Positions 3,086-20,328 of a stretch of 64,000 bases of DNA are shown here, piece after piece (the first letter of the stretch is position 1; each line of letters opens with the position of its first letter). Made by a program: the position numbers and the translations under genes. The notes below the pieces were generated by a model that saw nothing but the letters and a program-made list of their open reading frames with translations, did not search any database and had not been told where the DNA came from. The stretch spans positions 6,429 through 70,428 of the forward strand of contig DATBIX010000029.1 in NCBI GenBank assembly GCA_036556665.1, written 5' to 3'. The DNA is from Acidimicrobiia bacterium (lineage in GTDB: Bacteria; Actinomycetota; Acidimicrobiia; Spongiisociales; ZC4RG35).

Positions 3086-3553
3086 ATGAGCTCGACACTC
3101 CAGCACGATTCCCCGAGCCCACTGGTCAGGGCCAACCACCGCCGACGCGCTCTCCATGAGGCGATGACCCGGCTCGAGGGGGCAATCGCCCGGCCGGTCG
3201 CCTCCGATGACTGGCTCGCCGAGGTCGATAGCGGGATGAAGGCGGTCACCAACGGTCTGCAGGCGCACATCCAGGAGGTCGAGGGGCCCGAAGGCATCAT
3301 CGCCGACATCGTGGACGTCGCCCCACGTCTCAGCGCGGCTGCCACCGAGCTGGCCAACGAGCACCACGGGATAACCGCGGCGATGCGCCGAGCCGAAACG
3401 GCCCTCGAGGCCGCCCGCCGTGGGGGTGCGACCGAGAAGACGCTGCTCCGCCGCCGGGTCACCACCCTGCTCGGACGGCTCACCATTCATCGACAGCACG
3501 GCTCCGACCTGGTGTACGACGCCTACAACATCGACATCGAGGCGGGTGACTGA
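3086..3553 (+). CDS. hemerythrin-like four-helix protein
   Basis: ATG 3086 in ORF 2738..3553; LHEAM, AHIQEVE, LANEHHG, IHRQHGSD His/Glu pattern. Confidence 0.6.
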   Translation: MSSTLQHDSPSPLVRANHRRRALHEAMTRLEGAIARPVASDDWLAEVDSGMKAVTNGLQAHIQEVEGPEGIIADIVDVAPRLSAAATELANEHHGITAAMRRAETALEAARRGGATEKTLLRRRVTTLLGRLTIHRQHGSDLVYDAYNIDIEAGD

Positions 3554-6441
3554 CCTCCTGGGGCACGGCGATCGTCCCCCGACCAGACTGAGGCCTCGCC
3601 TTCGGTGCCCAGTCGCCGGGCGATCAGCTTCCGCAGCTCGGCTGCCCAGAGCACAAGGCTCGCCAGCGCGATGCAAATCGACCAGTCACGCGGTCCGAGC
3701 GGGACAGTGCCGAAGGCCTGATTGAGCCACGGGGCTTGGACCACCGCGACCTGAAGGAGCCCCGACAAGGCAACCGCACCCCAAAGCCACCCATTCGTGA
3801 ACAGGCTCCTGAAGGCGCTGCTTCGATCCGATCGTGCGTTGAAGCAATTGAACAGTTGGGCAAAGACCAGGGTGGTGAAGGCCATCGTGCGCGCCTCGTC
3901 GATCGTGCCGGTTCCCTCGAAGAGCCCACCGGGGAGCCCAAGGTCGAGGGCGGTCAACGTGACCACCGCCATCACCAACCCGACCCAGATGATCCCGATC
4001 CACATCTCCTTGTCGATGACCCGCTCGGTGAGATGCCGGGGTGGCCGGAGCATCACGTCGTGGGGGGGCGGCTCGACGCCCATGGCAAGTGCGGGCCCTG
4101 TGTCGGTGAGCAGGTTGATCCACAGGATCTGGGTGGCGAGAAGCGGCACGGCCACCGCCCCTCCCGCCTGTTCCAGCCCGATCACCCCGGCCAGGACCAC
4201 CCCGAGGAACATGGTCAAGACTTCCCCGGTGTTGGACGACAGGAGGAAGCGAAGGAACTTCCGGATATTGGCGAAGATGCCCCTCCCCTCGCGCACGGCA
4301 GCGATGATCGTGGCGAAGTTGTCGTCGGCCAAGACCATGTCAGAGGCCTCTTTGGTCACGTCTGTGCCGGTGAGGCCCATGGCCACGCCGATGTCGGCTG
4401 CTTTCAGCGCAGGGGCATCGTTCACCCCGTCACCGGTCATGGCGACGATGTTGCCCTCGGCCTGAAGTGCCCTGACGATCCGCAGCTTGTGCTCGGGAGC
4501 GACTCGGGCGAAAACGGTGGCACTCCTCACCACCGCACTCAGCCCATCGTCGTCCATCTCCTCCAGCTCGGAGCCGGTGACGACTGCCTCTTGCTCGGAA
4601 ATGCCCAGGTCCCCCGCGATCCGGGCCGCGGTGAGTGGGTGGTCGCCGGTGATCATCAGGATCCGGATCCTCGCCTCGAGGGCGTCGGCCACGGCGGCCC
4701 GCGCCTCGGGGCGGGGCGGATCGATGATCCCAACCGTTCCCAGGTAGATCATCTCCTGCTCCACGGCATCTTCGTCACTGCTGCTCGCCCCATCGGGGAG
4801 AGGGCGGTAGGCAACGGCCATGGTTCGCAGTGCCTGACCGGCGAGCCGGTCGACCGTGGCGAGTATCTGTCGGCGGCGCTCCTCGGTGAGCGCTCGCTTT
4901 TCGCCCGCCACCAGCTCCAGGGTGCATCGGGCGAGAAGGACGTCGGGCGCCCCTTTGGTGACCACGTCGACCTGACCGTCACGCTCGGCGTCGGCCTGCA
5001 GGGTGGTCATCAGCTTCCGCTCGGAGCTGAACGGGATCTCACCGACTCGCCGGAATCGGGCCTCGCGCGACGCGGTGAGCCCGAGTTTCGCCTCGGCGAC
5101 GAGGAAGGCGCCCTCGGTGGGATCGCCATGGATCACCCATTCACCGTTCTCCCGACGCAGGACCGCGTCGTTGGCCAGGCTGCCTCCCATCAAGACCAGG
5201 CCGACCTCCTCGAGGAGCGGCCCCTCAGGTATTGGCTCATCCCCCGCCAGCACCTCGCCCTCCGGCCGGTAGCCGGTGCCGGTCACGTCGACCTCCCCCG
5301 ACGGAGTCGCCACCTTCACGAGGGTCATCTCGCTTCGGGTCAGAGTGCCGGTCTTGTCCGAGCCCACCACCGAGGCCGAGCCGAGCGTCTCGACCGACGA
5401 CAGCTTCTTGACGATGGCGTTCTTGTGAGCCATGCGTTGCACGCCGAGGGCAAGCACAAGGGAGAGGACAGCGGGGAGACTCTCTGGCACCGCGGCCACC
5501 GCAAGGGACACCCCCACCAACAGCACCGCGACGAAGTCGGCGGGCTCCCGGATCTCGCTGCCGAGGAGGATCGTGCCCACGACCACCGCGGAGATGATGA
5601 TCACAGCGATCCCGAGGGCACGGCCGATGGCGTCTACCTCGCGCTGCAGTGGCGTGCGCGCCTCCTCGGTTGTATCGAGGAGCCGAGCGATGTTTCCCAT
5701 CTCACTGGCCATCCCGGTGGCCGTCACGATGGCGCGTCCCCGGCCTCTGGTCACAGCGGTGCCGTTGAACACCATGTTGGTCCGGTCGCCGAGAGAGGAG
5801 GGCTCGTCGAGAGGAGCCGTGCTCTTGCTGACCGGCTCACTCTCACCCGTCAGCGACGCCTCGGCCACCATCAGGGACGCCACGTCGAACACCCTCGCAT
5901 CTGCGCTGACCGCGTCACCCTCGGCGAGGAGCAGGACGTCTCCAGGCACGACTTCGACGGAAGGCACCTGCATCTCCTCGCCATCGCGCAGGACGGATGC
6001 AGATGTCGAAGCCATCTCCTGTAGCGCGGCCACCGCGCGCTCGGCGCGCGCCTCCTGAACGTACCCGAGGATGGCGTTGGCGATCACGATCACCAGGATC
6101 ACCAATGCCTCGAAGGGCACGTCCTCGGCTCCCTCGATGGCCCAGACCGCGAGAGACACCACGACTGCGGCCAGCAGGAGGTAGACCAGCGGGTCGGCGA
6201 GATGGGAGAGGAACTTGCGCCAGCGTGGGACCGGTGGCTCCGATTCGAGCCGGTTCGGCCCGAATCTCTCCAGACGGGCCGATGCGTCACCCGGCGTCAG
6301 GCCACGGCTGGTCTCACAACCCAGCCCTGAGGCCACCTCATCCGCCGAACGCAACCAGGGCTGATCGGGAAGGGCTGTCTCGACCGGGGTCTCGGGCACG
6401 TCGAAACGGTAGGCGACCAGGGTGGGTGTCTCGGGAGACAC
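3523..6441 (-). CDS. cation-translocating P-type ATPase, P2A (Ca2+/CtpF-like)
   Basis: TGES, DKTGTLT, KGAPD, GDGVND; TM4 VPESLP, TM5 SSNTGE, TM6 INLLTD. Confidence 0.92.
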   Translation of the reverse strand: MSPETPTLVAYRFDVPETPVETALPDQPWLRSADEVASGLGCETSRGLTPGDASARLERFGPNRLESEPPVPRWRKFLSHLADPLVYLLLAAVVVSLAVWAIEGAEDVPFEALVILVIVIANAILGYVQEARAERAVAALQEMASTSASVLRDGEEMQVPSVEVVPGDVLLLAEGDAVSADARVFDVASLMVAEASLTGESEPVSKSTAPLDEPSSLGDRTNMVFNGTAVTRGRGRAIVTATGMASEMGNIARLLDTTEEARTPLQREVDAIGRALGIAVIIISAVVVGTILLGSEIREPADFVAVLLVGVSLAVAAVPESLPAVLSLVLALGVQRMAHKNAIVKKLSSVETLGSASVVGSDKTGTLTRSEMTLVKVATPSGEVDVTGTGYRPEGEVLAGDEPIPEGPLLEEVGLVLMGGSLANDAVLRRENGEWVIHGDPTEGAFLVAEAKLGLTASREARFRRVGEIPFSSERKLMTTLQADAERDGQVDVVTKGAPDVLLARCTLELVAGEKRALTEERRRQILATVDRLAGQALRTMAVAYRPLPDGASSSDEDAVEQEMIYLGTVGIIDPPRPEARAAVADALEARIRILMITGDHPLTAARIAGDLGISEQEAVVTGSELEEMDDDGLSAVVRSATVFARVAPEHKLRIVRALQAEGNIVAMTGDGVNDAPALKAADIGVAMGLTGTDVTKEASDMVLADDNFATIIAAVREGRGIFANIRKFLRFLLSSNTGEVLTMFLGVVLAGVIGLEQAGGAVAVPLLATQILWINLLTDTGPALAMGVEPPPHDVMLRPPRHLTERVIDKEMWIGIIWVGLVMAVVTLTALDLGLPGGLFEGTGTIDEARTMAFTTLVFAQLFNCFNARSDRSSAFRSLFTNGWLWGAVALSGLLQVAVVQAPWLNQAFGTVPLGPRDWSICIALASLVLWAAELRKLIARRLGTEGEASVWSGDDRRAPGGQSPASMSML

Positions 6442-6484
6442 CGAGGTCTCCCAGGTGGCCGGGCCTTTCCAGGACGAAGACCGA

Positions 6485-8104
6485 TCAGCCTTCCACGATC
6501 ACCTTTGCCCTCATCCAGGGGTGAGGAGTGCAGAAGTACTCGAACTCACCGACCTCGGTGAAGGTGTAGCTGAACGTGGCGCCCGTCTCGAGGAATCCTG
6601 AATCGAACGACCCGTCCACCGCAGTGACCGTGTGCATCTGACCCTCGTCGTCGTTGGTCCAGGTCACGGTGGTGCCGACACTCACCGTGAGCGTGTTGAC
6701 GGAGTAGTCCGCGGGGTCCTCCGTGGCTTCGAACTCGTCGGGTGCGCTCAGATCCTGGGTGGTCCATGCACCGGGGAGTATCGAGACGCTCTCACCGGTG
6801 GCCGCACCCTCGGTGGTCCCGGTCATCTCGTGACCGCCCGCTGCCGCCTCACCGGTCCCGGTGACATCCTCGAAGATCTCCGGATTCGGATCGCCCGAGA
6901 TGACTATCTGACCGATGGCTCCCTTGTCGACTGCCCGGGCCAGCGCGTGGTCGACGAGGACGACGGTCGAAGGGACCTGACCGATCAGCTCCACGACGGT
7001 CCCTCCGCCGGCCGGGACCAGAGTGGTCTGCGAGCCGCGCAGAGGTGGGTTCAAGAGAGCCGCCTCGGGATAGACCTTGTCCCAGTGGGACCCGATGGGG
7101 TGGAAGTTGGAGTCGAGGTTCAGGCCCGCGTTGATGAAGTACAGGCGGGCACGCTCGCCCACAGCCATCTGCAAGGCGTTGTCCCCGGTGAGGGAGCCGA
7201 CGGCTCCGTTGAACACGACGAACGTCGGAGCCTCGTCGGTCACCGCGGCGCGATCGAACTCGACGACACCCGGCTGCCGGTCGACGGTGTAGTACTCGGA
7301 CTGGACCATGTACCACTCGTGAGCCACTACGGGTAGCGGGTCCTCGGGGTCGACCAGGATCCCACCGAACATCCCGTGTGAGATATGGGCCGGGATGTCC
7401 CCGTAGGCGCAGTGGTACATGAAGAATCCCGGATAGAGGAGGCGGGCTTCGATGGTCTTGGTCTCACCGGGAGCGACTGTCGTCGCTTCGGCGCCGCCAC
7501 CCTGGCCGGTCACCGAGTGGAAGTCCACGTTGTGCGGGTTGTGACTCGTGGACGGGTTGGTGATGGTGAAGCGAAGGACATCGCCGACACGGGCCCTGAT
7601 CACCGGTCCCGGGGTGCCAACGACCAGGCCGTCGGGGCCATCGAGAAGGCGATATCCCCAGGTCTCGGTCTCGATCCCCGTGGCGGGGTCGATCGTCGAA
7701 ATCCCCTCGACCACCTCGAAGTGGACCTCGACGATCGCCTGGTCCGCCCGACCCGACGGGGGAGGCATCTGTGGTGCGATGGCGACGTTGACCTCGTCGG
7801 ACGGCACGACAGAGAGTTGGTCCTTGGGCATCAGCGTCGGCATGACGTCCTCCGGGAGCTCCACGGTCCCGGCTACGTCGCCCGATGCCAGATAGGCGTC
7901 GATCCTGTCCGAGACGATCGCGTCGTCCACGGAGTCACGACTGGCGGTGATCATGAGCGAGGCGACGCCTATGCCCACCGCGATGAGAGTCCCAACGATT
8001 CCGAGGGCCACCAGAGTGCCCAGTGTGTAATGCGGGTGTGGAGGTGGGGGCGGCGGCTGCGTGTGGCCGGGTTGGGCTTGTGCACGATCCACTGTCTGCG
8101 CCAT
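6485..8104 (-). CDS. nirK: copper-containing nitrite reductase with N-terminal TM anchor and C-terminal cupredoxin domain
   Basis: HNVDFH, YHCAYGDIPAHISHGMFG, NFHPIG; C-terminal HTVTA...YFCTPHPWM type-1 Cu site. Confidence 0.9.
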   Translation of the reverse strand: MAQTVDRAQAQPGHTQPPPPPPHPHYTLGTLVALGIVGTLIAVGIGVASLMITASRDSVDDAIVSDRIDAYLASGDVAGTVELPEDVMPTLMPKDQLSVVPSDEVNVAIAPQMPPPSGRADQAIVEVHFEVVEGISTIDPATGIETETWGYRLLDGPDGLVVGTPGPVIRARVGDVLRFTITNPSTSHNPHNVDFHSVTGQGGGAEATTVAPGETKTIEARLLYPGFFMYHCAYGDIPAHISHGMFGGILVDPEDPLPVVAHEWYMVQSEYYTVDRQPGVVEFDRAAVTDEAPTFVVFNGAVGSLTGDNALQMAVGERARLYFINAGLNLDSNFHPIGSHWDKVYPEAALLNPPLRGSQTTLVPAGGGTVVELIGQVPSTVVLVDHALARAVDKGAIGQIVISGDPNPEIFEDVTGTGEAAAGGHEMTGTTEGAATGESVSILPGAWTTQDLSAPDEFEATEDPADYSVNTLTVSVGTTVTWTNDDEGQMHTVTAVDGSFDSGFLETGATFSYTFTEVGEFEYFCTPHPWMRAKVIVEG

Positions 8105-8514
8105 CAGTTGCCTCCTTGGAGCTCGGTCTGCAACACGAAGACCTCGTCGAAGCCATCATCGAGAACGCGCCTGGCTTCCACCCAGATGGCGTGGATGGGA
8201 CAGGAGATGTCTCCAGGGCACGGGGCATCCCGGAGGACGCACCGCCCACTGGCCGAAGGCCCCTCGGTGGCTTCGATCACCTGGAGAAGACGGGCCTGGT
8301 GGGCCGACTCGGTGAGCTCATAGCCCCCTCCGGGTCCTCGCCGGGAAACGACCCAGCCTCCCCGGACCAGGCCCGCCATGACCTGGGGCAGGAACGAGGA
8401 CGTGGTACCGATCGAACGGGCGAGCTCGGCTCGGCCCAGCCTCCCACCGGCCTCGAGGAGTGCCCGCATAGCCTCGAGGGCGAGATCGGTGCGACGGCTG
8501 AATGTGATGTTCAT
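8104..8514 (-). CDS. Rrf2 family transcriptional regulator with three Cys (Fe-S type)
   Basis: SRRGPGGGYEL; C-x6-C-x5-C (CVLRDAPCPGDISC); ATG 8514; TGATG overlap with nirK. Confidence 0.9.
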   Translation of the reverse strand: MNITFSRRTDLALEAMRALLEAGGRLGRAELARSIGTTSSFLPQVMAGLVRGGWVVSRRGPGGGYELTESAHQARLLQVIEATEGPSASGRCVLRDAPCPGDISCPIHAIWVEARRVLDDGFDEVFVLQTELQGGN

Positions 8515-8540
8515 TAGTTGTTGAGTCGACAACTGATGAA
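8510..8540. promoter_or_regulatory. 12-7-12 inverted repeat over the Rrf2 start (candidate Rrf2 operator)
   Basis: TTCATTAGTTGT-TGAGTCG-ACAACTGATGAA, 11/12 arm match, AT-rich in a GC-rich genome. Confidence 0.6.
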
Positions 8541-8552
8541 TTCGATCCAGTA

Positions 8553-8566
8553 GGGCCATTGGTCCC
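8553..8566. promoter_or_regulatory. DosR/DevR-like box between rrf2-nirK and mgtE
   Basis: TA-GGGCC-ATTG-GTCCC-TA. Confidence 0.6.
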
Positions 8567-8628: not shown

Positions 8629-9624
8629 TTGGCCAGGAGCCAAGTCATCGAGTCTTCACCCCGGCCAGAGCCGACAAGCGAGAGCGCATTCGCCCTCGCC
8701 TCCACTCGTGTCCCCATCGCCGGTCGCCACGACACGGTGTCGGAGGTCCTCAGACGGCTCCGCGCCAATGGACGGCTCGAGACCATCGCCGACATCGCCG
8801 TGGTCGAAGACGGCCATCTGCTCGGGCTGGTCCCCATCGAGGATCTCCTCGCCGCTCCAGACGACGCGGTCGCCGCCACGCTGATGGATCCCGACCCGCC
8901 CCTGGTTCGGCCCGGTGTCGACCAGGAGGTGGCGGCCACCAAGGCGGTCACACGCGGTGAGAGCAGTCTGGCCGTGGTCGACGAGGACGGCCTCTTTCTC
9001 GGCCTGATCCCTCCGCATCGGATGCTCAGCGTCCTGCTGGAGGAGCATCGGGAGGACCTGGCTCGTCTCAGCGGGTACCTGCATCAGAGCGAGTCGGCGC
9101 GGTCAGCCAGCGAAGAAGGTGTCGCCCTTCGCCTTTGGCACAGGTTCCCCTGGCTGGTGGTAGGGCTGGCTTCGGCGATGGCGGCAGCCGTCATCGTCTC
9201 GGGCTTCGAACAGGGCCTCGCCTCCCACATCGAGCTGGTGTTCTTCATCCCGGGAATCGTCTACATCGCCGATGCGGTGGGAACGCAGACAGAGGTCCTG
9301 GTGGTGCGAGGGCTGTCCGTCGGCGTCTCGGTCCGCAGGATCGTCGGCAGGGAGCTTGCCACCGGATTGGCGCTCGGGCTCATCCTCGGCATCCTCGCCT
9401 TTCCCGCAGTGCTCTACTGGGTCGACCGGCCGGTGGCGTTGACGGTGTCGACCAGCATTTGGGCCGCATCGACCGTGGCGACCCTCGTCGCCATGGCCCT
9501 CCCCTGGCTGCTATCACGGGCCGGGTTGGACCCGGCTTTTGGGAGCGGGCCGCTGGCGACGGTGATCCAGGACCTGCTCTCCCTGGCCATCTACTTCGCC
9601 TTTGCCGGCCTGTTCGTGCTCTGA
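8629..9624 (+). CDS. mgtE: magnesium transporter MgtE-like (CBS pair + TM domain, no MgtE N-terminal domain)
   Basis: CBS repeats ([25 protein letters not shown]), [25 protein letters not shown]; start uncertain. Confidence 0.85.
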
Positions 9625-10626
9625 TCGGCCCGAGACGACGAGAACGGCGGCACCGGTCACCCTGTCCTGGGCCAGGTCGAGCAGGGCCCGACTCGCCTCG
9701 GAGAAGTCGTAGGCCACGGTGGTGGGCCTGATCGGGATGCGCGCGGCGATGTCGAGAAACTCACGGCCATCCTGACGGGTGTTGGCAGTGACCGACCTGA
9801 TCTGACGCTCCTCGAACAGCCATCGATACTCGAGCGCCGGGATATCGGTCAGGTGGATGCCGGCGATCGCCAACGTGCCGCCCCTGTGCAACGCCCGCAA
9901 AGCGGGCGGGACGAGATCCCCGACCGGGGCGAATAGGATGGCGGCATCGAGTCTCTCCGGAGGCTCGTCATACGCATCTCCCGCCGAGGAGCATCCCAGG
10001 TCCAGGGCCAGTCGGCGCGCCTCCTCAGACCGGGTCATCACATGCACCGTCGCCCCCTGGTAGATGGCGATCTGAGCGGTCAGATGAGCGGAGCCTCCGA
10101 ACCCGTAGATGCCGAGCCGTCCCCCTGGTGGCAACTCGGCACGGCGAAGGGCGCGATATCCGATGATCCCGGCGCAGAGCAAGGGAGCAGCCTCGTCATC
10201 GCTGAATACCTCCGGTATGGCATAGGCGTATCCCTCGGCCACGACCGCGTGCTCGGCGTATCCCCCGTCGGCGTCCCAGCCGGTGAACTCCGGTGACACA
10301 CAGAGGTTCTCAGAGCCGGCGAGGCACCACGGACAGGCGCCGCAGGTCTGCCTCAGCCAGGCGATCCCGACCCTGTCCCCGACTCCGAAGCGACTTGCCC
10401 CGGGGCCGATCGCATCGACCACTCCGACCACCTCGTGGCCCGGCACCACCCGGGCCCGATGGACTGGCAGATCACCCTCGACCACGTGGAGATCGGTGCG
10501 ACACACCCCGCACACCGAGACCCTGACCCTGATCTCGCCTCGACCCGGCGATGGCGTGGCCACGTCGGCGAGTTGGAGCGGTTCGCTCTCCATCGGTCCG
10601 GGGGTGTGAACCTGCCAGGCGCGCAT
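9514..10626 (-). CDS. zinc-binding alcohol dehydrogenase family protein
   Basis: [23 protein letters not shown]...ENLC, YGFGGSA. Confidence 0.92.
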
Positions 10627-10637
10627 GGTGCGGGAAA

Positions 10638-11588
10638 CTAGGAGCCGGTGTCTTTGCGTGCCCGCCCGGTGAGACCCTCTGTGAGCAAGGCCACCAGGAG
10701 CGCCTGCTCGGTGTGAAGCCGGTTCTCCGCCTGATCCCCGACCACCGATTGCCTCCCATCGAGAACGGCATCGACGACCTCGTCACCACGATGAGCCGGG
10801 AGACAATGCATGAAGATGGCGTTGGGCGAGGCCAGGTCCATCATCGCCTCATCGACCCGGAATGGGGCGAGCAGGGCCATTCGCCTCTCCTGGGGCTCCG
10901 GCGGGTCGCCAATGGGCCACACGTCGGTGTAGACGACATCGGCATCCTTGACCGCCTCGGCCGGGTCGTGACCGAGGTCGATGGTGGCTCCGGTTCGCCG
11001 GGCCACTGCCCTTGCCCGGTTCACCACTCCCCTGTCGGGAGCAAGTTCGGCCGGGGTGCCGACGACGAGGTGCAAACCCGCCAGGGCCGCAGCCTGGATG
11101 AGGCTGTGAGCCACATTGTTGCCATCGCCGAGGTAGGCGACCCGCCGGCCCTGCAGTGAGCCGAGGTGGTCTCTGACGGTGAGCATGTCCGCCAGAGCTT
11201 GACATGGGTGATGCATGTCGGTCAGGGCATTGATCACGGGGATCGTCGCCGCCGATGCGAATCTGGTCACTTGGCTGTGCTCGAAGGTTCCGATCACAGC
11301 AGCGCTCGCGTATCGGGACACGACCATGGCAGTGTCTTCGATCGTCTCAGCCCCGTCGAGCTGCAGCTCGGCGGGCCCAACGAATTCGGCCTCGCCGCCA
11401 AGGTGGGTGATGGCAGCGGCGAACGAGATGCGGGCCCGGGTGGAAGGCGTGGAGAAGTAGCAGAAGACGATCTCGTCGGCGAGAAGGCCGTCGCGCAAGT
11501 GCGGCATCTCACGGGCCTCCAGAGCTAGGTCGAGGAGCCGGTTGAGATCGTCCCGTGTGAGGTCGAGGACCTCGAGATAGTCCTTCAC
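10638..11588 (-). CDS. ornithine carbamoyltransferase-like transcarbamylase, divergent active site
   Basis: [23 protein letters not shown] present; STRA, IGTF and DVWPIG replace STRT, IRTF and SMG; GTG start 11588. Confidence 0.85.
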
Positions 11589-11665
11589 ATCCGTCCCTTG
11601 GTCGTGCCTTGCCAACGTAAGCCCGCACAGCTGCTGGGGGCCAGCGGCGTTTTCCTCCCCTACAT

Positions 11666-11679
11666 GGGACCTAATGCCC
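11666..11679. promoter_or_regulatory. DosR/DevR-like box between OTC-like gene and amino acid permease
   Basis: GGGAC-CTAA-TGCCC; AACGAT (11703-11708) 23 nt downstream. Confidence 0.55.
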
Positions 11680-11740
11680 TTGTCGCCGGGCGAGATCATC
11701 CGAACGATGAGGGGGTTGGGCCTGACAAGGAGGTGCTCTC

Positions 11741-13129
11741 GTGACCGTGCAGAGTCACACGAAGAGGCGAGCCCTGGGGCCTTGGTTGGCGACCGCCCTG
11801 GTCGTGGGCAACATGATCGGGTCGGGCGTCTTCCTTCTCCCCGCCGCGCTCGCCGAATACGGTGGTATCAGCCTCATCGGATGGCTGTTCACCGGTGCCG
11901 GAGCCGTGCTCCTGGCAATCGTCTTCGCCCGGCTGGGCCGGGCCTACCCGCGGACCGGCGGCCCCTATGAGTACAGCCGACGGGCCTTCGGGGAGTTCGT
12001 CGGGTTCCAGACGGCCTGGGGCTACTGGATCGCGATCTGGGCCGGGAACGCAGCCATCGCCGTGGCTTTCGTCGGCTACCTGGCAGTGTTCTGGGAGGGC
12101 TTGGCGGACAACGCCCTGCTCGCCGCGTTGGTGGCGGTTGGGGCCATCTGGCTGCTGACCTGGGTCAATGCCCTCGGGGTGAAGCAGGGCGGATGGGTCC
12201 AGGGGATCACGACGGTCTTGAAGGTCCTGCCCCTGCTCGCCATGGCGACAATCGGGCTCTTCTTCATGGACACCGCCAACTTCACCCCGTTCAACCTGAG
12301 CGGCGGCTCGGCTTTCGCCGCGGTGACTGCGGTGGCAGCCTTGACTCTCTGGGCATTCATCGGACTGGAGTCGGCCACTGTGCCGGCTGAAGACGTGCTC
12401 GATCCTGAGCGCAACATTCCGAGAGCGACCATCTGGGGGACGGTCGGCACGACGCTGATCTACATCCTCAGCACGGTTGCGGTGCTCGGGATCATCCCGG
12501 CGGCGACCCTTGTCAACTCGACGGCTCCTTTCGCCGATGCAGCGGAGTCTGCCTTTGGCGGCTGGGCGGGGACCCTGGTGGCGATCGGTGCCATCATCGC
12601 CACGTTCGGTGCGCTGAACGGCTGGATCCTGTTGCAGGCCCAGATCCCGATGGCGGCGGCTCGTGATCGGCTCTTTCCGAGCAGGTTTGGTCGCACCAAT
12701 CGAGCCGGCGCACCGGTGTTCGGGCTGGTGGTCTCCAGCGCCCTCGTGACGCTGCTGATGCTGGCCAACTACACCAAGGGGCTCGTCGAGCTGTTCACCT
12801 ACATGCTGCTCCTGGCAACGCTGACCACGCTGATCCCCTATGCCTATTCGGCGGCCGCCCAGCTGATGCTGTTCGTCACGGATCGGGAGAAGTTCTCCGG
12901 GATGCGCCTGGCCAAGGACTCCGTGATCGCCTCACTGGCGTTCGCCTACTCGGTTTGGGCCATCTACGGGGCGGGCCAGGAGGTTGTGTTCTACGGGCTG
13001 CTCCTCTTGCTTGCAGGGATCCCCATGTACGTGTGGGTGAAGTGGAGGAACAGGGTCCACGACGAGAAGCTGCCCGACGGGATCGTCATCCCCGACTCCC
13101 CTGCAGCGCTCTTCGACGGTTCGATCTGA
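11741..13129 (+). CDS. APC family basic amino acid antiporter (AdiC/ArcD-like)
   Basis: NMIGSGVFLLP, LWAFIGLESA, about 12 TM segments. Confidence 0.88.
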   Translation: MTVQSHTKRRALGPWLATALVVGNMIGSGVFLLPAALAEYGGISLIGWLFTGAGAVLLAIVFARLGRAYPRTGGPYEYSRRAFGEFVGFQTAWGYWIAIWAGNAAIAVAFVGYLAVFWEGLADNALLAALVAVGAIWLLTWVNALGVKQGGWVQGITTVLKVLPLLAMATIGLFFMDTANFTPFNLSGGSAFAAVTAVAALTLWAFIGLESATVPAEDVLDPERNIPRATIWGTVGTTLIYILSTVAVLGIIPAATLVNSTAPFADAAESAFGGWAGTLVAIGAIIATFGALNGWILLQAQIPMAAARDRLFPSRFGRTNRAGAPVFGLVVSSALVTLLMLANYTKGLVELFTYMLLLATLTTLIPYAYSAAAQLMLFVTDREKFSGMRLAKDSVIASLAFAYSVWAIYGAGQEVVFYGLLLLLAGIPMYVWVKWRNRVHDEKLPDGIVIPDSPAALFDGSI

Positions 13130-13140
13130 GAGGAGGAGAC

Positions 13141-14502
13141 ATGAAGAAGATCGTGATCATGGGAGCAGGGGGAAGGGACTTCCATGACTTCAACGTCGTT
13201 TATCGGGACGATCCCGACACACGTGTCATCGCGTTCACCGCAGCCCAGATCCCTGGCATTGCGGGTCGGGTGTACCCGCCCGCCCTGGCCGGCCCCCTCT
13301 ATCCCGAGGGGATACCGATCATGGACGAAGCCGACCTGGCCGATCTGATCGCGCGGGAGAAGGTGGATCAGGTGGTCTTCGCCTACAGCGACCTCTCCCA
13401 CGTCGAGGTGATGCACAAGGCCTCCCTGGCGCTGGCCCAGGGCGCAGACTTCGCCATGATCGGGCCGGCCCGGACCATGCTCTCCAGCACCAAGCCGGTC
13501 GTCGCCGTTTGCGCCGCCCGCACGGGTTGCGGGAAGAGCCAGACCAGCCGGTGGATCGGCAAGATCCTGACCGAGGCAGGCCTCGACGTCTCATTGATCC
13601 GCCACCCGATGCCCTACGGCAATCTGGAGCGGATGATGGTGCAGCGTTTCGAGACGATCGAGGACATCGATGCCTCGGACCCGACTATCGAGGAGCGTGA
13701 GGAGTACGAGGAGCCGGTGAGGGCAGGCCTCCTGATGTGGGCCGGAGTCGACTATGCCGAGATCCTGCACCGGGCCGAAGAGGAGTCCGACGTGATCGTC
13801 TGGGACGGCGGGAACAACGACTTCCCCTTCTATCGCCCGGATCTCTTCGTCACGGTGGTGGACCCCCTCCGGCCGGGTCACGAGCTGGAATACCACCCGG
13901 GCGAGATCAACGTGCGGATGGCGGACGTTGTCGTGATCAACAAGATCGACGTCTCCAACCCGCACGATGTGACGCTGGTCATGGAAAACGTCCGATCGGT
14001 CAACCCGAAGGCGACCATCGTCCAGACCGCCTCACCGGTTCGCCTGGAACCGGGACCCGAGTTGGCCGGGAAGAGGGTGCTGGTGGTGGAGGACGGCCCG
14101 ACCCTCACCCATGGCGGAATGCCTTTCGGGGCAGGGACAGTGGCCGCCCGTCACGCCGGGGTCGGAACCATCGTCGATCCGCGACCCCATGCCGTCGGCT
14201 CCATCGTCGACACGTTCTCCAGGTTCCCCATGCTGGGCCCCGTTCTCCCGGCAATGGGCTACGGCGAAGCGCAGCTTCAGGAGTTGGAGGCGACGATTCG
14301 CAACGTGCCGTGTGACGTCGTCGTGACCGGCACACCCATCGACCTGGGGCGGCTGATCGAGGCCGGGCACCCGGTGCGCCGGGCGGTCTACGAATCGGTG
14401 CAACTCGGTGAGCCGAGGCTCGAGGAGGTCCTGCGCGGTGTCATCGACGAGGCCTGGAATCGGAGGCAATCGACGGGCCCCTACGAGATAGCCGCCGGCT
14501 GA
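13141..14502 (+). CDS. cyclic 2,3-diphosphoglycerate synthetase-like P-loop enzyme; probable arginine synthetase (ArcE) homolog
   Basis: IMGAGGRDFHDFN, FTAAQIPGI, RTGCGKSQT, RHPMPYG, EEREEYE, WDGGNND, EDGPTLTHGGM; RBS AGGAGG. Confidence 0.8.
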   Translation: MKKIVIMGAGGRDFHDFNVVYRDDPDTRVIAFTAAQIPGIAGRVYPPALAGPLYPEGIPIMDEADLADLIAREKVDQVVFAYSDLSHVEVMHKASLALAQGADFAMIGPARTMLSSTKPVVAVCAARTGCGKSQTSRWIGKILTEAGLDVSLIRHPMPYGNLERMMVQRFETIEDIDASDPTIEEREEYEEPVRAGLLMWAGVDYAEILHRAEEESDVIVWDGGNNDFPFYRPDLFVTVVDPLRPGHELEYHPGEINVRMADVVVINKIDVSNPHDVTLVMENVRSVNPKATIVQTASPVRLEPGPELAGKRVLVVEDGPTLTHGGMPFGAGTVAARHAGVGTIVDPRPHAVGSIVDTFSRFPMLGPVLPAMGYGEAQLQELEATIRNVPCDVVVTGTPIDLGRLIEAGHPVRRAVYESVQLGEPRLEEVLRGVIDEAWNRRQSTGPYEIAAG

Positions 14503-15687: not shown

Positions 15688-16134
15688 ATGGAACTGAAGT
15701 TGTGGTCTCCGTTCCTCGATCTCGACAAGGAGTGGCGCTTCGACTTCCCGCGCCTCCTCGACTTCCCCATGCTGGGTCGTGAGTTGACCGGATTCGAATT
15801 CCGGCCGGCCATCGATCTGGTCAAGGAGGAGGGCGAGCTGGTGGCCACTATCGAGCTGCCCGGAATGGACCCGAAGGACATCGACGTCTCCATCGAGGGC
15901 GACTACCTGACCATCAAGGGCGAGAAGCACGAAGAGAAGGAGGTGTCCGAGGACGATCGCTACTTCCGTGAGCGGAGCTATGGCAAGTTCGAGCGGCGCT
16001 TCCGGCTCCCGGAAGGGACCAGCGCCGACAAGATGAGCGCGATGTACGACAAGGGCGTGCTCACACTGCATATCACGCTTCCGGAGGAGAAGCAGCTAGA
16101 GCCCCTCCACATCCCGATCGAGGCCAAGACCTGA
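15688..16134 (+). CDS. Hsp20/alpha-crystallin small heat shock protein
   Basis: ELPGMDPKDIDVSI, ERSYGKFERRFRLP, YDKGVLTLHI; RBS GGAGGT. Confidence 0.93.
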   Translation: MELKLWSPFLDLDKEWRFDFPRLLDFPMLGRELTGFEFRPAIDLVKEEGELVATIELPGMDPKDIDVSIEGDYLTIKGEKHEEKEVSEDDRYFRERSYGKFERRFRLPEGTSADKMSAMYDKGVLTLHITLPEEKQLEPLHIPIEAKT

Positions 16135-16221: not shown

Positions 16222-18984
16222 GTGCTCCCCGGGCCCTCACTGATGGTGCCGAGCCGGCAAGACCAGGCCGACGTAGCCGAGATGGCAACCGAGGAGGTCT
16301 ATCGGGCCCTCGGCACATCGCCGTCGGGTCTGACCCAGGAGGAGGCGGCCGAGCGGCTCGCCGTTCATGGCCCCAACACGATCAGCCCGATCTCACGGAG
16401 ACGCCTCGTATCGAGGCTCCTGTCGAACTTCGTGCACGTGATGGCGATTCTGCTTTGGGTTGGCGGCGCCGTTGCGTTTCTCGCCGATCTGCCGCAGCTC
16501 GGAGTGGCCATATGGGTGGTCAACGTGGTCAACGGCATCTTCAGCTTCTGGCAGGAGTTCAAGGCGGAAAAGGCGACGGAAGCCCTGCTCCGCCTTCTCC
16601 CCTCCACGGCCACGGTCCTTCGGGAAGCGGTGCTCGAGCAGGTGGATGCCACCGCACTCGTACCCGGCGACGTGGTCTTCATCGAAGAGGGTGACCGCAT
16701 CTCGGCCGACGGCCGGCTGGTGGAGCACGTGGCGCTGCGCGTCGACCAATCCACCCTCACCGGCGAGTCACGCTTGGTCCGCAAGGCCTCGGATCCGGTC
16801 GACACGGCAGGAAGGAGCCGCCTCGAGCTGCCCAATCTGGTGTTTGCCGGTACCACGGTGGGGTCGGGGCGGGGAAAGCTGGTCGTCACCTCGACCGGGG
16901 CCGGGACCGAGCTCGGCGGCATCGCCGCCCTGACCGGGTCACTGGCCGACACCCCCAGCCCCCTCCAGCGCGAGTTGAGGAGGGTCAGTCTCACTGTCAG
17001 CATCGTGGCGATCGGTGTCGGAGTGGTCTTCTTCATCCTGGCGCTCGCCCTGGGTGGTTTGCCCCTGGCCACCGGCTTCGTCTTCACCCTGGGGATGATC
17101 GTCGCCTTCGTCCCCGAGGGGCTCCTCCCCACCGTGACCCTCGCTCTCGCGATGGGCACCCAGAGAATGGCGGCACGCAACGCCTTGGTGAGGAAGCTGT
17201 CGGCGGTGGAGACCCTGGGGTGCACAACGGTGATTTGCACCGACAAGACCGGCACACTGACTCAGAACGAGATGACCGTCCGCTCGGCCCTCGTCGGCGG
17301 TCGGCGATATGAATTCGAGGGAGTCGGGTACCAGCCTGAGGGTCGGATCCATCCCGGGCCGGACGATGGCCTGGTCACACTTCTGGCCACCGCGGCTCGC
17401 GCCTCCAATGCGCGCCTGGTGCACAACGATGGAGACACCGGGAGACTGACCGTGGTCGGCGACCCGACCGAGGGCGCAATCCTCACCGCCGCAATGAAGG
17501 CGGGAATCGATCTCGACGTCCTGAGCTCGGATGCTCCCCGCGTCGCCGAATGGCCGTTCGACCCGGTTAGGAAGCGAATGAGCTCCGTGGCGCGCATGGG
17601 CGGGGAGTTGGTGGTCGCGACGAAGGGGGCTCCCGCCGAGCTCCTCGAGCGCTGCTCCTCACTCCATTCCGCCGATGGAACGCTGGCCCTCGAAGTGGAC
17701 GACCGAAAAGGGATCATCCAGGCGGTGAATGCGGCTGCGGCCGAGGGCCTGAGAGTCCTGGGGGTTGCACGTCGGGTGATCGACCATCTCCCCGATGAGC
17801 GCGAGGACTTCGAGATCGACCTCGAGTTCATCGGGCTGGTCGCCATGCACGACCCGCCGAGACCCGAGGTCGAGGCGGCCATCGCCAGTTGTAGGAGCGC
17901 GGGCATCCGGATCGTGATGATCACAGGGGACTATGGGATAACCGCTGAAGCGATCGGGCGCAGGATCGGCATGGTCGGTGAGGGCCAGGTGAGGGTGGTC
18001 AACGGCGACGAGATGGACGCCATCGATGACGCCGCCCTCGGCGCGATCCTGGACGATGAGGTGATCTTCGCCAGGGTGACCCCTTCTCACAAGATGCGGG
18101 TGGTCGCCGCTCTCCAGGATCGCGGTGCGGTGGTTGCGGTCACCGGGGACGGGGTCAACGATGCCCCGGCTCTCAAACTGGCCGACATCGGGGTCGCCAT
18201 GGGGCAGTCCGGCACCGACGTCGCCCGGGAGGCAGCCGACATCATCCTGCTCGACGACAACTTCGCATCGATAGTCGCCGCCATCGAGGAAGGGCGGGCC
18301 GTCTATGACAACATCAAGAAGTTCACGACCTACATCCTCACGTCCAACGTGCCCGAAGCCGTCCCGTTCGTGGTCTTCGCATTCTCCGGTGGGCGAATCC
18401 CGCTCGCATTGGGCGTGATGCACATCCTCGCCATCGACCTGGGCACCGACCTCGCCCCTGCCCTCGCCTTGGGGGCGGAGCCACCCGAGCCTGGTGTGAT
18501 GGACCGGCCACCCCGCTCGCTCGATGCCCGACTCATCGACCGGCCCCTACTTGCCCGCGCCTATCTCCTGCTCGGGCCGGTCCAGGCGCTCTTTGTCATG
18601 ATTGCCTTCTTCGGGGCCTACCGCCTGCAGGGTGTCGAGGACTGGTCCAACCTGGCCTCGTCGGGGACGATCTATCTCGCCGCCACGGCAATGGCGCTGG
18701 CAGGGGTGGTGACCACGCAAATCGGCAATCTCTTCGCCCAGCGATCGGCTCGGGTCTCGCTGCGCCGTATCGGTCTGGGAGGCAATCGCCTTCTCTGGTG
18801 GGGGATACTCTCCGAAGTGGTGGTCATTCTCCTCATCGTCTATCTGCCCCCGCTGCAGAGGGTCATCGGCACGGCTCCGTTCCCGCCGATCGGGTGGGCC
18901 TGGCTGCTTCTCGGAGTCCCCCTGCTGCCGCTGGCCGACGAAATCAGGAAAGCGCTCACCGCCCACCGGGGAAGAGCACGATGA
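16222..18984 (+). CDS. cation-translocating P-type ATPase, P2C (Na+/K+- or H+/K+-ATPase)-like
   Basis: TGES, DKTGTLT, GDGVND; IVAFVPEGLLPTVT, YILTSNVPEAVPF, ILAIDLGTD; start may be ATG 16243 or 16282. Confidence 0.88.
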   Translation: MLPGPSLMVPSRQDQADVAEMATEEVYRALGTSPSGLTQEEAAERLAVHGPNTISPISRRRLVSRLLSNFVHVMAILLWVGGAVAFLADLPQLGVAIWVVNVVNGIFSFWQEFKAEKATEALLRLLPSTATVLREAVLEQVDATALVPGDVVFIEEGDRISADGRLVEHVALRVDQSTLTGESRLVRKASDPVDTAGRSRLELPNLVFAGTTVGSGRGKLVVTSTGAGTELGGIAALTGSLADTPSPLQRELRRVSLTVSIVAIGVGVVFFILALALGGLPLATGFVFTLGMIVAFVPEGLLPTVTLALAMGTQRMAARNALVRKLSAVETLGCTTVICTDKTGTLTQNEMTVRSALVGGRRYEFEGVGYQPEGRIHPGPDDGLVTLLATAARASNARLVHNDGDTGRLTVVGDPTEGAILTAAMKAGIDLDVLSSDAPRVAEWPFDPVRKRMSSVARMGGELVVATKGAPAELLERCSSLHSADGTLALEVDDRKGIIQAVNAAAAEGLRVLGVARRVIDHLPDEREDFEIDLEFIGLVAMHDPPRPEVEAAIASCRSAGIRIVMITGDYGITAEAIGRRIGMVGEGQVRVVNGDEMDAIDDAALGAILDDEVIFARVTPSHKMRVVAALQDRGAVVAVTGDGVNDAPALKLADIGVAMGQSGTDVAREAADIILLDDNFASIVAAIEEGRAVYDNIKKFTTYILTSNVPEAVPFVVFAFSGGRIPLALGVMHILAIDLGTDLAPALALGAEPPEPGVMDRPPRSLDARLIDRPLLARAYLLLGPVQALFVMIAFFGAYRLQGVEDWSNLASSGTIYLAATAMALAGVVTTQIGNLFAQRSARVSLRRIGLGGNRLLWWGILSEVVVILLIVYLPPLQRVIGTAPFPPIGWAWLLLGVPLLPLADEIRKALTAHRGRAR

Positions 18985-19631
18985 GAGCCGTCGTCATCGG
19001 GTGCGGGAGAGTCGGCTCCGCCCTCGCCTACCTGCTCGAGATGAATGGCACCCAGGTCACCATCGTCGACCGCGACGCCAAGGCGCTCCAGAGGCTCGGT
19101 GAGGGGTTCCACGGCGAGATGCTCATCGGCGTGGGTCTCGACCAAGACCTACTGGAGAGAGCGGGGGTATCGAAGGCGGATGCCCTGGCGGCGGTCACCG
19201 GCAGCGACGAGACCAATGCCGTCCTGGCGCGGCTGGCCACACGCCGATTCCGCGTTCCGAGAGTGGTGGCGCGGATGTACGACCCGCGCCAGGCCGACCT
19301 CTACCGACGACTCGGGGTCATGACCATCTCGCCCGTCGAGTGGAGTGTCACCAAGTTCGGTCACCTGCTCAGCCTGCAAGATCTGGCTCCGATCAGTGCC
19401 ATCGGCGCAGGTCAGGTACAGGTCGTGGAGGCATCGGTGACGCCAGGGCTCGCCGGACGGGCGGCTGGAGAGCTGGAGGTCCCTGGGGAGACCAGGCTGA
19501 TCGCCCTGACCCGTGCCGGGCGGACCTTCCTCGGCGCCTCCAACGTGATCCTCGAGCCCGGCGACGTCGTCTCGATCGCTGTGACCTCGGGGTCCGAGAC
19601 GAGACTTCAGCAACTGCTGGGGCTCGGATGA
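18981..19631 (+). CDS. trkA: TrkA/RCK family NAD-binding potassium uptake regulatory protein
   Basis: VVIGCGRVG, AVTGSDETN, RCK_C; ATGA overlap with ATPase. Confidence 0.9.
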   Translation: MRAVVIGCGRVGSALAYLLEMNGTQVTIVDRDAKALQRLGEGFHGEMLIGVGLDQDLLERAGVSKADALAAVTGSDETNAVLARLATRRFRVPRVVARMYDPRQADLYRRLGVMTISPVEWSVTKFGHLLSLQDLAPISAIGAGQVQVVEASVTPGLAGRAAGELEVPGETRLIALTRAGRTFLGASNVILEPGDVVSIAVTSGSETRLQQLLGLG

Positions 19632-19641
19632 GGGAGGTCTG

Positions 19642-20328
19642 ATGTCCTCTGTGATCGTCATCGGCGGAGGGAAGGTCGGCTCATACCTGGCCCCGTTGCT
19701 CATGGAGGGTGGGCACTCGGTGACCGTCATCGAGCTGGTTGACGAGCGAGCCAGTGAAATCCGGGCGCGTCTCGACGGGGGCGTCGTCGTCGCCGGGTCG
19801 GGGACCGATGCGACCGTCCTGGAGAGGGCAGGAGTCAGAGGGTGTGACGTGGTCGCCGCCGTGACCGGGAACGATGAGACGAACCTCGTGGTCGCCTCCC
19901 TGGCGCGATTCGAGTTCGAGGTCCCCCGTGTCATCGCCCGAATCGACGATCCCTCCAATGCCTGGCTCTTTGCCCCCGACATGGGTGTCGACGTCGCCCT
20001 CAACCAGGCGGATCTACTCGCCCATCTCGTGGCAGAGGAGATGTCGATGGGCGAGATGACAACTCTCCTCAAGCTCCGGAAGGGCCAGTTCGCCCTCGTC
20101 GAGCAGAAGGTCGCTCCTGAAGCCTCGGTTGTCGGGCGCTCGATCGAAGAGATCGAATGGCCGGCTCGCTGTCAACTGGTGGCCGTGCTGCGGAAGGGAG
20201 ATCTCATCGCCCCCGAAGGAGAGATCGTGCTCCAGGCCGCAGATGAGGTGTTGGCGGTCGCACACTCCGACAGTGCGCCGATTCTGGAGGCGTTGCTCGA
20301 TCGGCCGCAACGGGGAGAGGCCGGCTGA
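19642..20328 (+). CDS. trkA: second TrkA/RCK family protein
   Basis: VIGGGKVG, AVTGNDETN, LFAPDMGVD, RCK_C. Confidence 0.9.
   Translation: MSSVIVIGGGKVGSYLAPLLMEGGHSVTVIELVDERASEIRARLDGGVVVAGSGTDATVLERAGVRGCDVVAAVTGNDETNLVVASLARFEFEVPRVIARIDDPSNAWLFAPDMGVDVALNQADLLAHLVAEEMSMGEMTTLLKLRKGQFALVEQKVAPEASVVGRSIEEIEWPARCQLVAVLRKGDLIAPEGEIVLQAADEVLAVAHSDSAPILEALLDRPQRGEAG

Follow-up and report, generated by a model that had tools for sequence, protein, structure and literature searches.

Does a gene that is annotated as ornithine transcarbamylase (OTC) still encode this enzyme when residues that bind its substrates have been replaced? The question is raised by an OTC-like open reading frame (ORF) at 10638..11588 on the minus strand of a 64,000-nucleotide stretch of DNA (hereafter, the window) from an Acidimicrobiia bacterium (contig DATBIX010000029.1); the product has 316 amino acids and a GTG start. 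An original prediction, made from the sequence alone, had described several substituted active-site residues and had offered three readings: a new specificity for the acceptor or the donor, a role as pseudoenzyme partner, or the decay of a paralog. Our analysis narrows these. Canonical OTC chemistry has most likely been lost with the fold kept, and the folded protein is either a retained pseudoenzyme or in slow decay, while paralogy is not upheld and a new specificity has the least support.

Ligand-binding motifs and fold

Transcarbamylases are defined by the motifs Fx(E/K/N/D/A/Q)xSxRT, HPxQ, and HxLP, and OTCases by DxxxSMG together with K53 and N167 (PMC4581275). Residues R57, T58, R106, H133, and Q136 stabilise the tetrahedral intermediate (PMC4581275); D231, S235, M236, N167, and K53 bind ornithine (PMC4581275; PMC8517447). 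The 80s and 240s loops define the second substrate across the family, and equivalents of T58 and R106 are listed for all nine characterised transcarbamylase types (PMC4581275, Table 1).

In the OTC-like protein, 5 of the 16 canonical ligand contacts are changed (K53T, T58A, R106G, S235P, and M236I in E. coli OTC numbering), and every ligand-site change is to a smaller or uncharged residue; S55, T56, R57, Q82, H133, Q136, N167, D231, C273, L274, and R319 are kept. STRT, the Arg of IRTF, and SMG are kept in all 119 closest database homologues (56–81% identity). The degenerate FxKxSxRT motif of the carbamoyl-phosphate and ornithine site reads F45-S-T47-P-S-T-R-A52 (11433..11456, minus strand). 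Here, Thr47 takes the place of the OTCase Lys53 and lies outside the set allowed at the third position of the superfamily motif, and the final Thr is Ala52 (codon GCC at 11433..11435, ACC in orthologs); Lys and Thr are each invariant at these positions, in 119/119 homologues. The Arg105/106 equivalent of the carbamoyl-phosphate site, an Arg in 119/119 homologues, is Gly100 in I99-G100-T-F (11283..11294, minus strand), with the codon GGA at 11289..11291 and CGN or AGG in orthologs. The 80s loop, Q76-L-D-G79-A80-E (11346..11363, minus strand), departs from the subfamily consensus QL(G/D)RGE by Arg to Gly79 (Arg in 117/119 homologues) and Gly to Ala80 (Gly in 119/119), and keeps Gln76, which corresponds to Q82 of E. 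coli. In place of DxxxSMG, the ornithine loop has D222-V-W-P225-I226-G-D (10905..10925, minus strand), where orthologs have DVWLSMGD: S235P and M236I are combined with the in-frame deletion of one codon before Pro225 (DVW-PIG when aligned). Ser and Met occupy these columns in 118/119 and 119/119 homologues, respectively.

The remaining motifs are intact. These are HPCQ (residues 127–130, 11199..11210) and HCLP (261–264, 10797..10808), which agree with HPxQ and HxLP; Arg290 in ENRLH (10719..10721), the equivalent of E. coli R319; all three on the minus strand; and the Asn of DGNN(V), the N167 equivalent. On codon inspection, STRA, IGTF (with GGA), QLDGAE, and DVWPIGD are all present as the original prediction had named them, and it had also been right about HPCQ, HCLP, and the terminal Arg; to these we add K47T, a change of the start codon from ATG to GTG, and, within motifs already named, G80A as a second change in the 80s loop and the in-frame loss of a codon before Pro225. 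The earlier observation of substituted motifs was correct and understated.

At near-invariant positions, the changes are confined to the motifs. Among 93 near-invariant columns of the family alignment (at least 97% conserved, leave-one-out), 7 differ in the OTC-like protein, all within ligand-binding motifs, and the other 86 are unchanged. By the same count, 106 of 113 full-length homologues deviate at 0–2 columns, and only two more divergent sequences exceed 7. Of about 20 substitutions specific to the lineage, 5 fall on the 16 ligand residues defined a priori (hypergeometric p = 0.002), and, with the 80s loop counted in, 7 fall on 18 (p = 3e-5). Substitution is targeted rather than random.

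The two-domain architecture of the superfamily is present, with Pfam matches to PF02729 (OTCace_N, E = 5e-37) and PF00185 (OTCace, E = 1e-51). An AlphaFold2 (AF2) model built with 52 homologues as input has a pLDDT of 94, and Foldseek aligns it to solved OTCs with a TM-score of 0.92–0.97, a root-mean-square deviation of 1.1–1.9 Å, and 42–44% identity; the top solved-structure matches by sequence are unknotted OTCs (E = 8e-80). The score is 330.8 bits with the NCBIfam OTC equivalog model TIGR00658 (cut-off 280.85) and 349.1 bits with NF001986 (cut-off 306); because these cut-offs are exceeded, annotation pipelines assign the name OTC, already carried in several sources. Judged by its sequence, the protein would have no characterised counterpart in its way of working. 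It is an arcB-type OTC by descent that fails the motif definitions of both OTCases and transcarbamylases in general, and yet passes the threshold of the naming hidden Markov model. Through the name, the citrulline/ornithine step would be wrongly ascribed to it when the metabolism of this soil Acidimicrobiia lineage is reconstructed.

The GTG start at 11588 is preceded, 5 nt upstream, by a Shine–Dalgarno-like AAGGGA (11586..11599 with the start codon, minus strand), and orthologs carry ATG at the aligned codon. Some gene callers place the start at an ATG at 11699, yielding a product of 353 amino acids; this start has no ribosome-binding site, and the 37-residue extension is absent from orthologs.

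We also compared the protein and its locus with known systems. The catabolic ArcB proteins of arginine deiminase (ADI) operons belong to the same nearest clade (56–81% identity), and a divergent amino-acid/polyamine antiporter is found here, as with ArcD. The locus differs from arc operons in that no ADI or carbamate kinase (CK) gene is found within the 64-kb window, in that a gene for a P-loop protein similar to cyclic 2,3-diphosphoglycerate synthase (cDPGS) stands beside OTC in loci without ADI, and in that SxRT, R106, and DxxxSMG are broken. A second transcarbamylase gene was also looked for in the window, and none was found. The OTCs of P. furiosus (1A1S), B. anthracis (4NF2), and M. tuberculosis (ArgF, 7NNV/2I6U) share the two-domain unknotted fold, HPCQ, HCLP, and the terminal Arg, but have STRT, the R106 equivalent, and SMG where the window protein has STRA, Gly100, and PIG in a shortened loop. 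Putrescine carbamoyltransferase (PTCase) of E. faecalis (4A8H) likewise stands on the OTC branch, lacks DxxxSMG, and serves a catabolic pathway with an antiporter and CK; unlike the window protein, it keeps SxRT and R103, and it has Gln in FxQxSxRT, a loop of the form (Y/W)(G/W)(V/L/I)x, and a C-terminus that is longer by about 20 residues. Membership in this type is rejected by Thr at the third position, the loop W-P-I-G, 6 extra C-terminal residues, and a TIGR04384 score of 261 bits against a cut-off of 500. YgeW, similar in having a transcarbamylase fold, a real substrate that is unknown, and a gene near CK, is in contrast knotted and longer, and keeps S71-T-R-T74 and R122; the YgeW model NF005538 gives 66.4 bits against 453. 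Also rejected were the knotted N-acetyl- and N-succinyl-ornithine transcarbamylases, which like YgeW are marked by a proline-rich loop and an extended 120s loop (NF003384, 154.6 bits against 288, the best structural matches being unknotted OTCs) and ATCases (TIGR00670, 126.4 bits against 236.95, and no RxQxER 240s loop).

Distribution, selection, and expression

The order HSP20, Germane-domain protein, COG2403, antiporter, and then, divergently, OTC and Zn-dependent alcohol dehydrogenase (ADH) is common to the window and to two sister loci, L001 (Acidimicrobiia metagenome-assembled genome (MAG) PPR_0124) and L080, whose OTCs are 79–81% identical to the OTC-like protein and fully canonical. Given this synteny, the gene is an ortholog of the canonical OTCs of the sister species and not, as the original prediction had it, a paralog.

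The variant is limited to one cluster at 90% identity, with 18 member sequences that are at least 98% identical. They come from JGI soil and rhizosphere metagenome contigs, Logan assemblies, and one contig (88,852 bp) of an NCBI MAG, and sequence of the gene is contained in about 24 SRA DNA runs. Each of the 26 contigs retrieved, which stem from independent JGI samples, has every one of the changes. Scans of GTDB species genomes and JGI metagenome contigs (~150 related loci), neither of which returned the variant-bearing species itself, yielded no intermediate forms and no other carriers; the best non-self match is 81% identical and canonical, and the closest relatives are Acidimicrobiia MAGs. 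The substitutions are confined to one species-level population of soil/rhizosphere Acidimicrobiia. An error of sequencing, assembly, or binning, or a chimeric contig, can be practically dismissed: identical motif changes recur in the 26 JGI contigs, the NCBI MAG, the Logan assemblies, and the DNA runs, and the DNA depth is flat, ~8–10, across the locus; this recurrence in independent samples, together with the uniform depth, excludes an artefact.

Pairwise dN/dS is ~0.1 in all comparisons, but uninformative, since dS is saturated at ~1; relative-rate, lineage, and population counts were therefore used. The counts of lineage-specific synonymous and nonsynonymous changes are 50:21 in the variant, 37:7 in L080, and 35:8 in L001. 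Over the whole gene, the ratio of nonsynonymous to synonymous changes (N:S) in the variant lineage is 0.42, compared with ~2.9 expected under neutrality; without the seven motif changes the counts become 50:14 and N:S falls to 0.28, compared with 0.19–0.23 in the sisters. As this value is near that of the sisters, the excess of change consists essentially of the ligand-site changes. Within the cluster, 8 amino-acid sites vary, of which 7 exceed the 70th percentile of entropy in the family alignment (binomial p = 0.0013) and none is at a conserved column. No stop or frameshift is seen in the gene in the 26 contigs, the sole indel being the in-frame one in the SMG loop; neither a disrupted frame in these contigs nor neutral evolution in the lineage counts, the marks of a pseudogene, was found. 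The ligand residues are no longer under constraint; the fold still is, if somewhat less than in orthologs. The original prediction had named, as evidence that would count against it, changes private to one genome and under relaxed selection: they are indeed private, to one species-level population, but the relaxation is about two-fold and far from neutral.

In one low-depth Logan contig of DNA run X2 (depth 2.1 of ~10), a 1-nt insertion after 10964 would shift the frame. At 10951..10970, where the OTC sequence is conserved, loose ends of other runs pile up, so the insertion may come from a cross-mapped homologue and not from a disrupted allele.

The OTC-like gene is present in two soil metatranscriptomes at an RNA contig depth of 2–5, contig depth being only a rough measure of expression. 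The antiporter and COG2403 genes have depths of 30–35, ADH and MgtE about 0, and HSP20 (15688..16134, plus strand) 700–980, by far the most abundant transcript of the region. The near-zero RNA of the flanking ADH and MgtE genes argues against carry-over of DNA as the source of the OTC-like RNA. The gene is transcribed, weakly. Separately, both DNA and RNA runs show depth spikes of 5–25 times the surroundings at 13675..13861 and 11992..12178, with many loose ends and "skips" around 13620..13800; these are most likely contigs of other organisms cross-mapped onto conserved COG2403 and antiporter segments, and not structural variants.

A degenerate OTC is also seen in a second, independent Acidimicrobiia lineage (P0081, locus L169, 7001..7942), within the same architecture of COG2403 and antiporter opposite OTC and CK. 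P0081 has ELDLDHGE in the 80s loop (Q82 to Asp, Arg to His) and GVWTPMGD in the ornithine loop (D231 to Gly, S235 to Pro), with STRT and R106 intact; the change of Ser to Pro in the SMG loop is common to P0081 and the window protein. Beyond residue 236, its relative P0285 (96% identical) has nothing in common with it and extends to 412 amino acids, which points to a shifted frame or to a fusion in the direction of CK.

Explanations for the retained fold

The reading that we tentatively favour, and to which we give a nearly even chance, is that a catalytically dead protein has been retained as a folded trimer, i.e., as a pseudoenzyme. The gene is the syntenic ortholog of the catabolic-type OTC of a conserved module of OTC and the cDPGS-like P-loop protein, with or without antiporter and CK. 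In one soil/rhizosphere species, the 5 of 16 contacts, the Arg-Gly of the 80s loop, and one residue of the SMG loop have been lost, and with them probably the productive binding of carbamoyl phosphate and ornithine, which would leave the protein dead or nearly dead for the OTC reaction. The folded trimer would serve some purpose other than catalysis; a candidate is that it associates with the neighbours, which are strongly conserved and better expressed. A purely unconstrained gene is disfavoured because the replacement of ~40% of ligand positions by drift would also have riddled it with dozens of nonsynonymous changes, stops, and indels, and this did not occur. Pseudoenzymes are defined by the loss of conserved catalytic motifs (PMC5106787; PMC10211241), and the OTC-like protein has an enzyme fold without the conserved catalytic and ligand motifs. 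A similar case is the inactive DHOase domain of fungal CAD-like proteins, in which the fold is kept without catalytic residues in a pathway complex (PMC4581275). However, the known pseudoenzymes of carbamoyl-phosphate pathways are ancient and widely conserved, with structural roles shown, and the OTC-like case belongs to one species-level lineage. Our literature search turned up no description of a catalytically dead transcarbamylase.

More specifically, the remodelled trimer might be a selected non-catalytic, or carbamoyl-phosphate-independent, subunit working with the cDPGS-like P-loop protein and the antiporter, which we regard as unlikely. If true, it would be the first pseudo-transcarbamylase described, as far as the literature search showed, and would offer a handle on the function of the OTC/P-loop/CK module in Actinomycetota, Dormiibacterota, and Clostridia.

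Several observations weigh against a retained role, and most of them are what would be expected from early, slow pseudogenisation, in which a dispensable catabolic OTC has become functionless and its frame and fold are kept by selection against misfolding of a protein that is still expressed and by the short time elapsed. Amino-acid change in the variant lineage is ~2.5 times faster than in the sisters (28–30 changes compared with 11–12 in Tajima's relative-rate test with L002 as the outgroup, p about 0.008), and for the neighbouring COG2403 the test is symmetric (20 compared with 21). A first population sample was picked by the OTC protein variant and hence biased, so the counts were repeated on a sample anchored on COG2403, unbiased for OTC: of the polymorphic codons in the OTC-like gene, 3 are synonymous and 6 nonsynonymous (pN/pS 0.69), compared with 20 and 5 for five neighbouring genes pooled (pN/pS about 0.1; Fisher p = 0.033). 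Database-wide, the OTC-like cluster has its eight variable amino-acid sites, and COG2403 one single sequence on 25 contigs. The RNA of the OTC-like gene is ~7–10 times below that of the divergent antiporter and COG2403, and its start has been weakened from ATG to GTG. The call of a dead enzyme rests on residue roles in other transcarbamylases. Active-site residues of an unused protein tend to be replaced by stabilising ones, and where replacement is favoured by stability alone, enrichment at the active site is no proof of a retained role. Finally, P0081 and P0285 show that the loss of such OTCs can proceed further, the degeneration of loops being followed by truncation or fusion.

Slow pseudogenisation is further in line with the restriction of the changes to one species-level population, with their being all of the loss type (Arg to Gly twice, Lys to Thr, Thr to Ala), with the lack of CK and ADI in the window, and with the possible, unverified insertion in run X2; the OTC may have become dispensable since CK is no longer adjacent in the clade, or by virtue of a complete arc operon elsewhere in the genome. 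Nevertheless, we consider this main rival possible but rather unlikely, as the 86 other near-invariant columns are unchanged, N:S outside the motifs is 0.28 and not ~2.9, the 26 contigs carry no stops or frameshifts, and polymorphisms avoid conserved columns. An enzyme of the transcarbamylase fold with a new function, i.e., an enlarged and less positive pocket for another acceptor and/or donor within an antiporter/P-loop pathway, would explain why the changes cluster in the 80s and 240s loops that determine specificity, why S-T-R, HPCQ, DGNN, D222, HCLP, and R290 are retained with the remainder under purifying selection, and why the partner genes are highly conserved and expressed. It is made improbable by the loss of the common catalytic T58 and R106, which every characterised type keeps whatever its acceptor, and this loss is also what speaks against the new specificity of the original prediction. 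Moreover, compensating residues are not evident among the lineage-specific changes, the pattern is found in no other lineage, so there is no conserved new subfamily, selection has slackened and the gene yields little RNA, and the protein bears no signature of PTCase, AOTCase, SOTCase, or ATCase. Improbable, too, is an OTC that still works, perhaps slowly or with a high Km, and in which the losses are compensated structurally. The scores above the NCBIfam equivalog cut-off, the 11 of 16 contacts retained, and the OTC fold are consistent with it, but five contacts, the Arg of the 80s loop, and the geometry of the SMG loop are lost together; R106 and T58 stabilise the transition state, and the combined losses would demand an unprecedented tolerance. 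In E. coli ATCase and OTCase and in human OTC, a single substitution at an equivalent position lowers activity by orders of magnitude.

Whether retained as a pseudoenzyme or slowly decaying, the protein, with canonical orthologs ~80% identical, offers a rare view of an enzyme just after catalytic loss, with the fold constrained and expression down. Reversion of the seven residues could test trade-offs between function and stability.

COG2403 and the gene neighbourhood

The conserved OTC/cDPGS-like P-loop/CK module is probably a more valuable lead than the OTC-like protein itself. In the window, the COG2403 gene (13141..14502, plus strand), a "predicted GTPase" encoding the cDPGS/LpxK-like P-loop protein, is a conserved neighbour of the OTC clade: it adjoins OTC in every relative at least 61% identical with enough flank. 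The protein is ~70% identical across classes and is named cyclic 2,3-diphosphoglycerate synthase by NCBI in relatives. Its AF2 model (pLDDT 89) best matches the M. fervidus cDPG synthetase fold (8ORU, E = 2.5e-16, 14% identity) and then LpxK; cDPGS and LpxK are both P-loop kinase/synthetase enzymes. The literature search turned up no description of a gene pair of OTC and a cDPGS/LpxK-like P-loop protein, and nothing relevant on COG2403.

CK lies directly downstream of OTC in four loci (L003, L081, L087, and L169). A Dormiibacterota MAG (L005) and Clostridia MAGs (L015, L019, and L108) have a single operon in which COG2403 stands between OTC and CK. In L166, CK adjoins COG2403 alone, and in L014, COG2403 adjoins OTC plus an ATCase; none of these loci has an ADI gene. 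L168 (61% identity) has a textbook operon of permease and ADI-OTC-CK. Due to its linkage to CK and, in L168, to ADI, the clade looks catabolic, arcB-like. In the sub-clade of the window, L001, and L080, OTC no longer has CK beside it, and the slot that CK holds in more distant relatives is occupied by the Zn-dependent ADH (9514..10626, minus strand), which begins 12 nt downstream of the OTC-like stop. The TIGR02822 match ends before the last ~40 codons of ADH (9514..9636, minus strand), which overlap MgtE (8629..9624, plus strand), a convergent gene; some haplotypes in the population have a stop at codon 334, some copies are called at 322–323 amino acids, and this tail looks like dispensable read-through.

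The basic amino acid/polyamine antiporter (APC family, AdiC/PotE-like; 11741..13129, plus strand), transcribed divergently from the OTC-like gene, is its conserved partner in the clade, 89.5% identical to the L001 ortholog (pairwise dN/dS 0.07). Its start is most likely the GTG at 11741, which is conserved in orthologs and is preceded by AAGGAGG 7 nt upstream, giving 462 amino acids compared with 447 in the JGI call. In the intergenic region at 11640..11740, two blocks are 100% conserved in the window, L001, L080, and L085, although dS of the flanking genes is ~1; the blocks could pair with each other on the plus strand only (five G-U pairs), with a loop of variable sequence, and an outer CCUCC:GGAGG stem covers the Shine–Dalgarno sequence of the antiporter. 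This hairpin may act as a leader through which translation of the antiporter/COG2403 operon is controlled; it has no match in Rfam and no covariation, the arms being invariant, and its folding z-score of −0.87 is not significant.

The locus as a whole is set in a neighbourhood of ion-homeostasis and stress genes (3523..8559 and 16222..20328), with two P-type cation ATPases, a multicopper oxidase/cupredoxin, an Rrf2 regulator, MgtE, two TrkA-domain proteins, and HSP20; genes of arginine biosynthesis are absent near the OTC-like locus.

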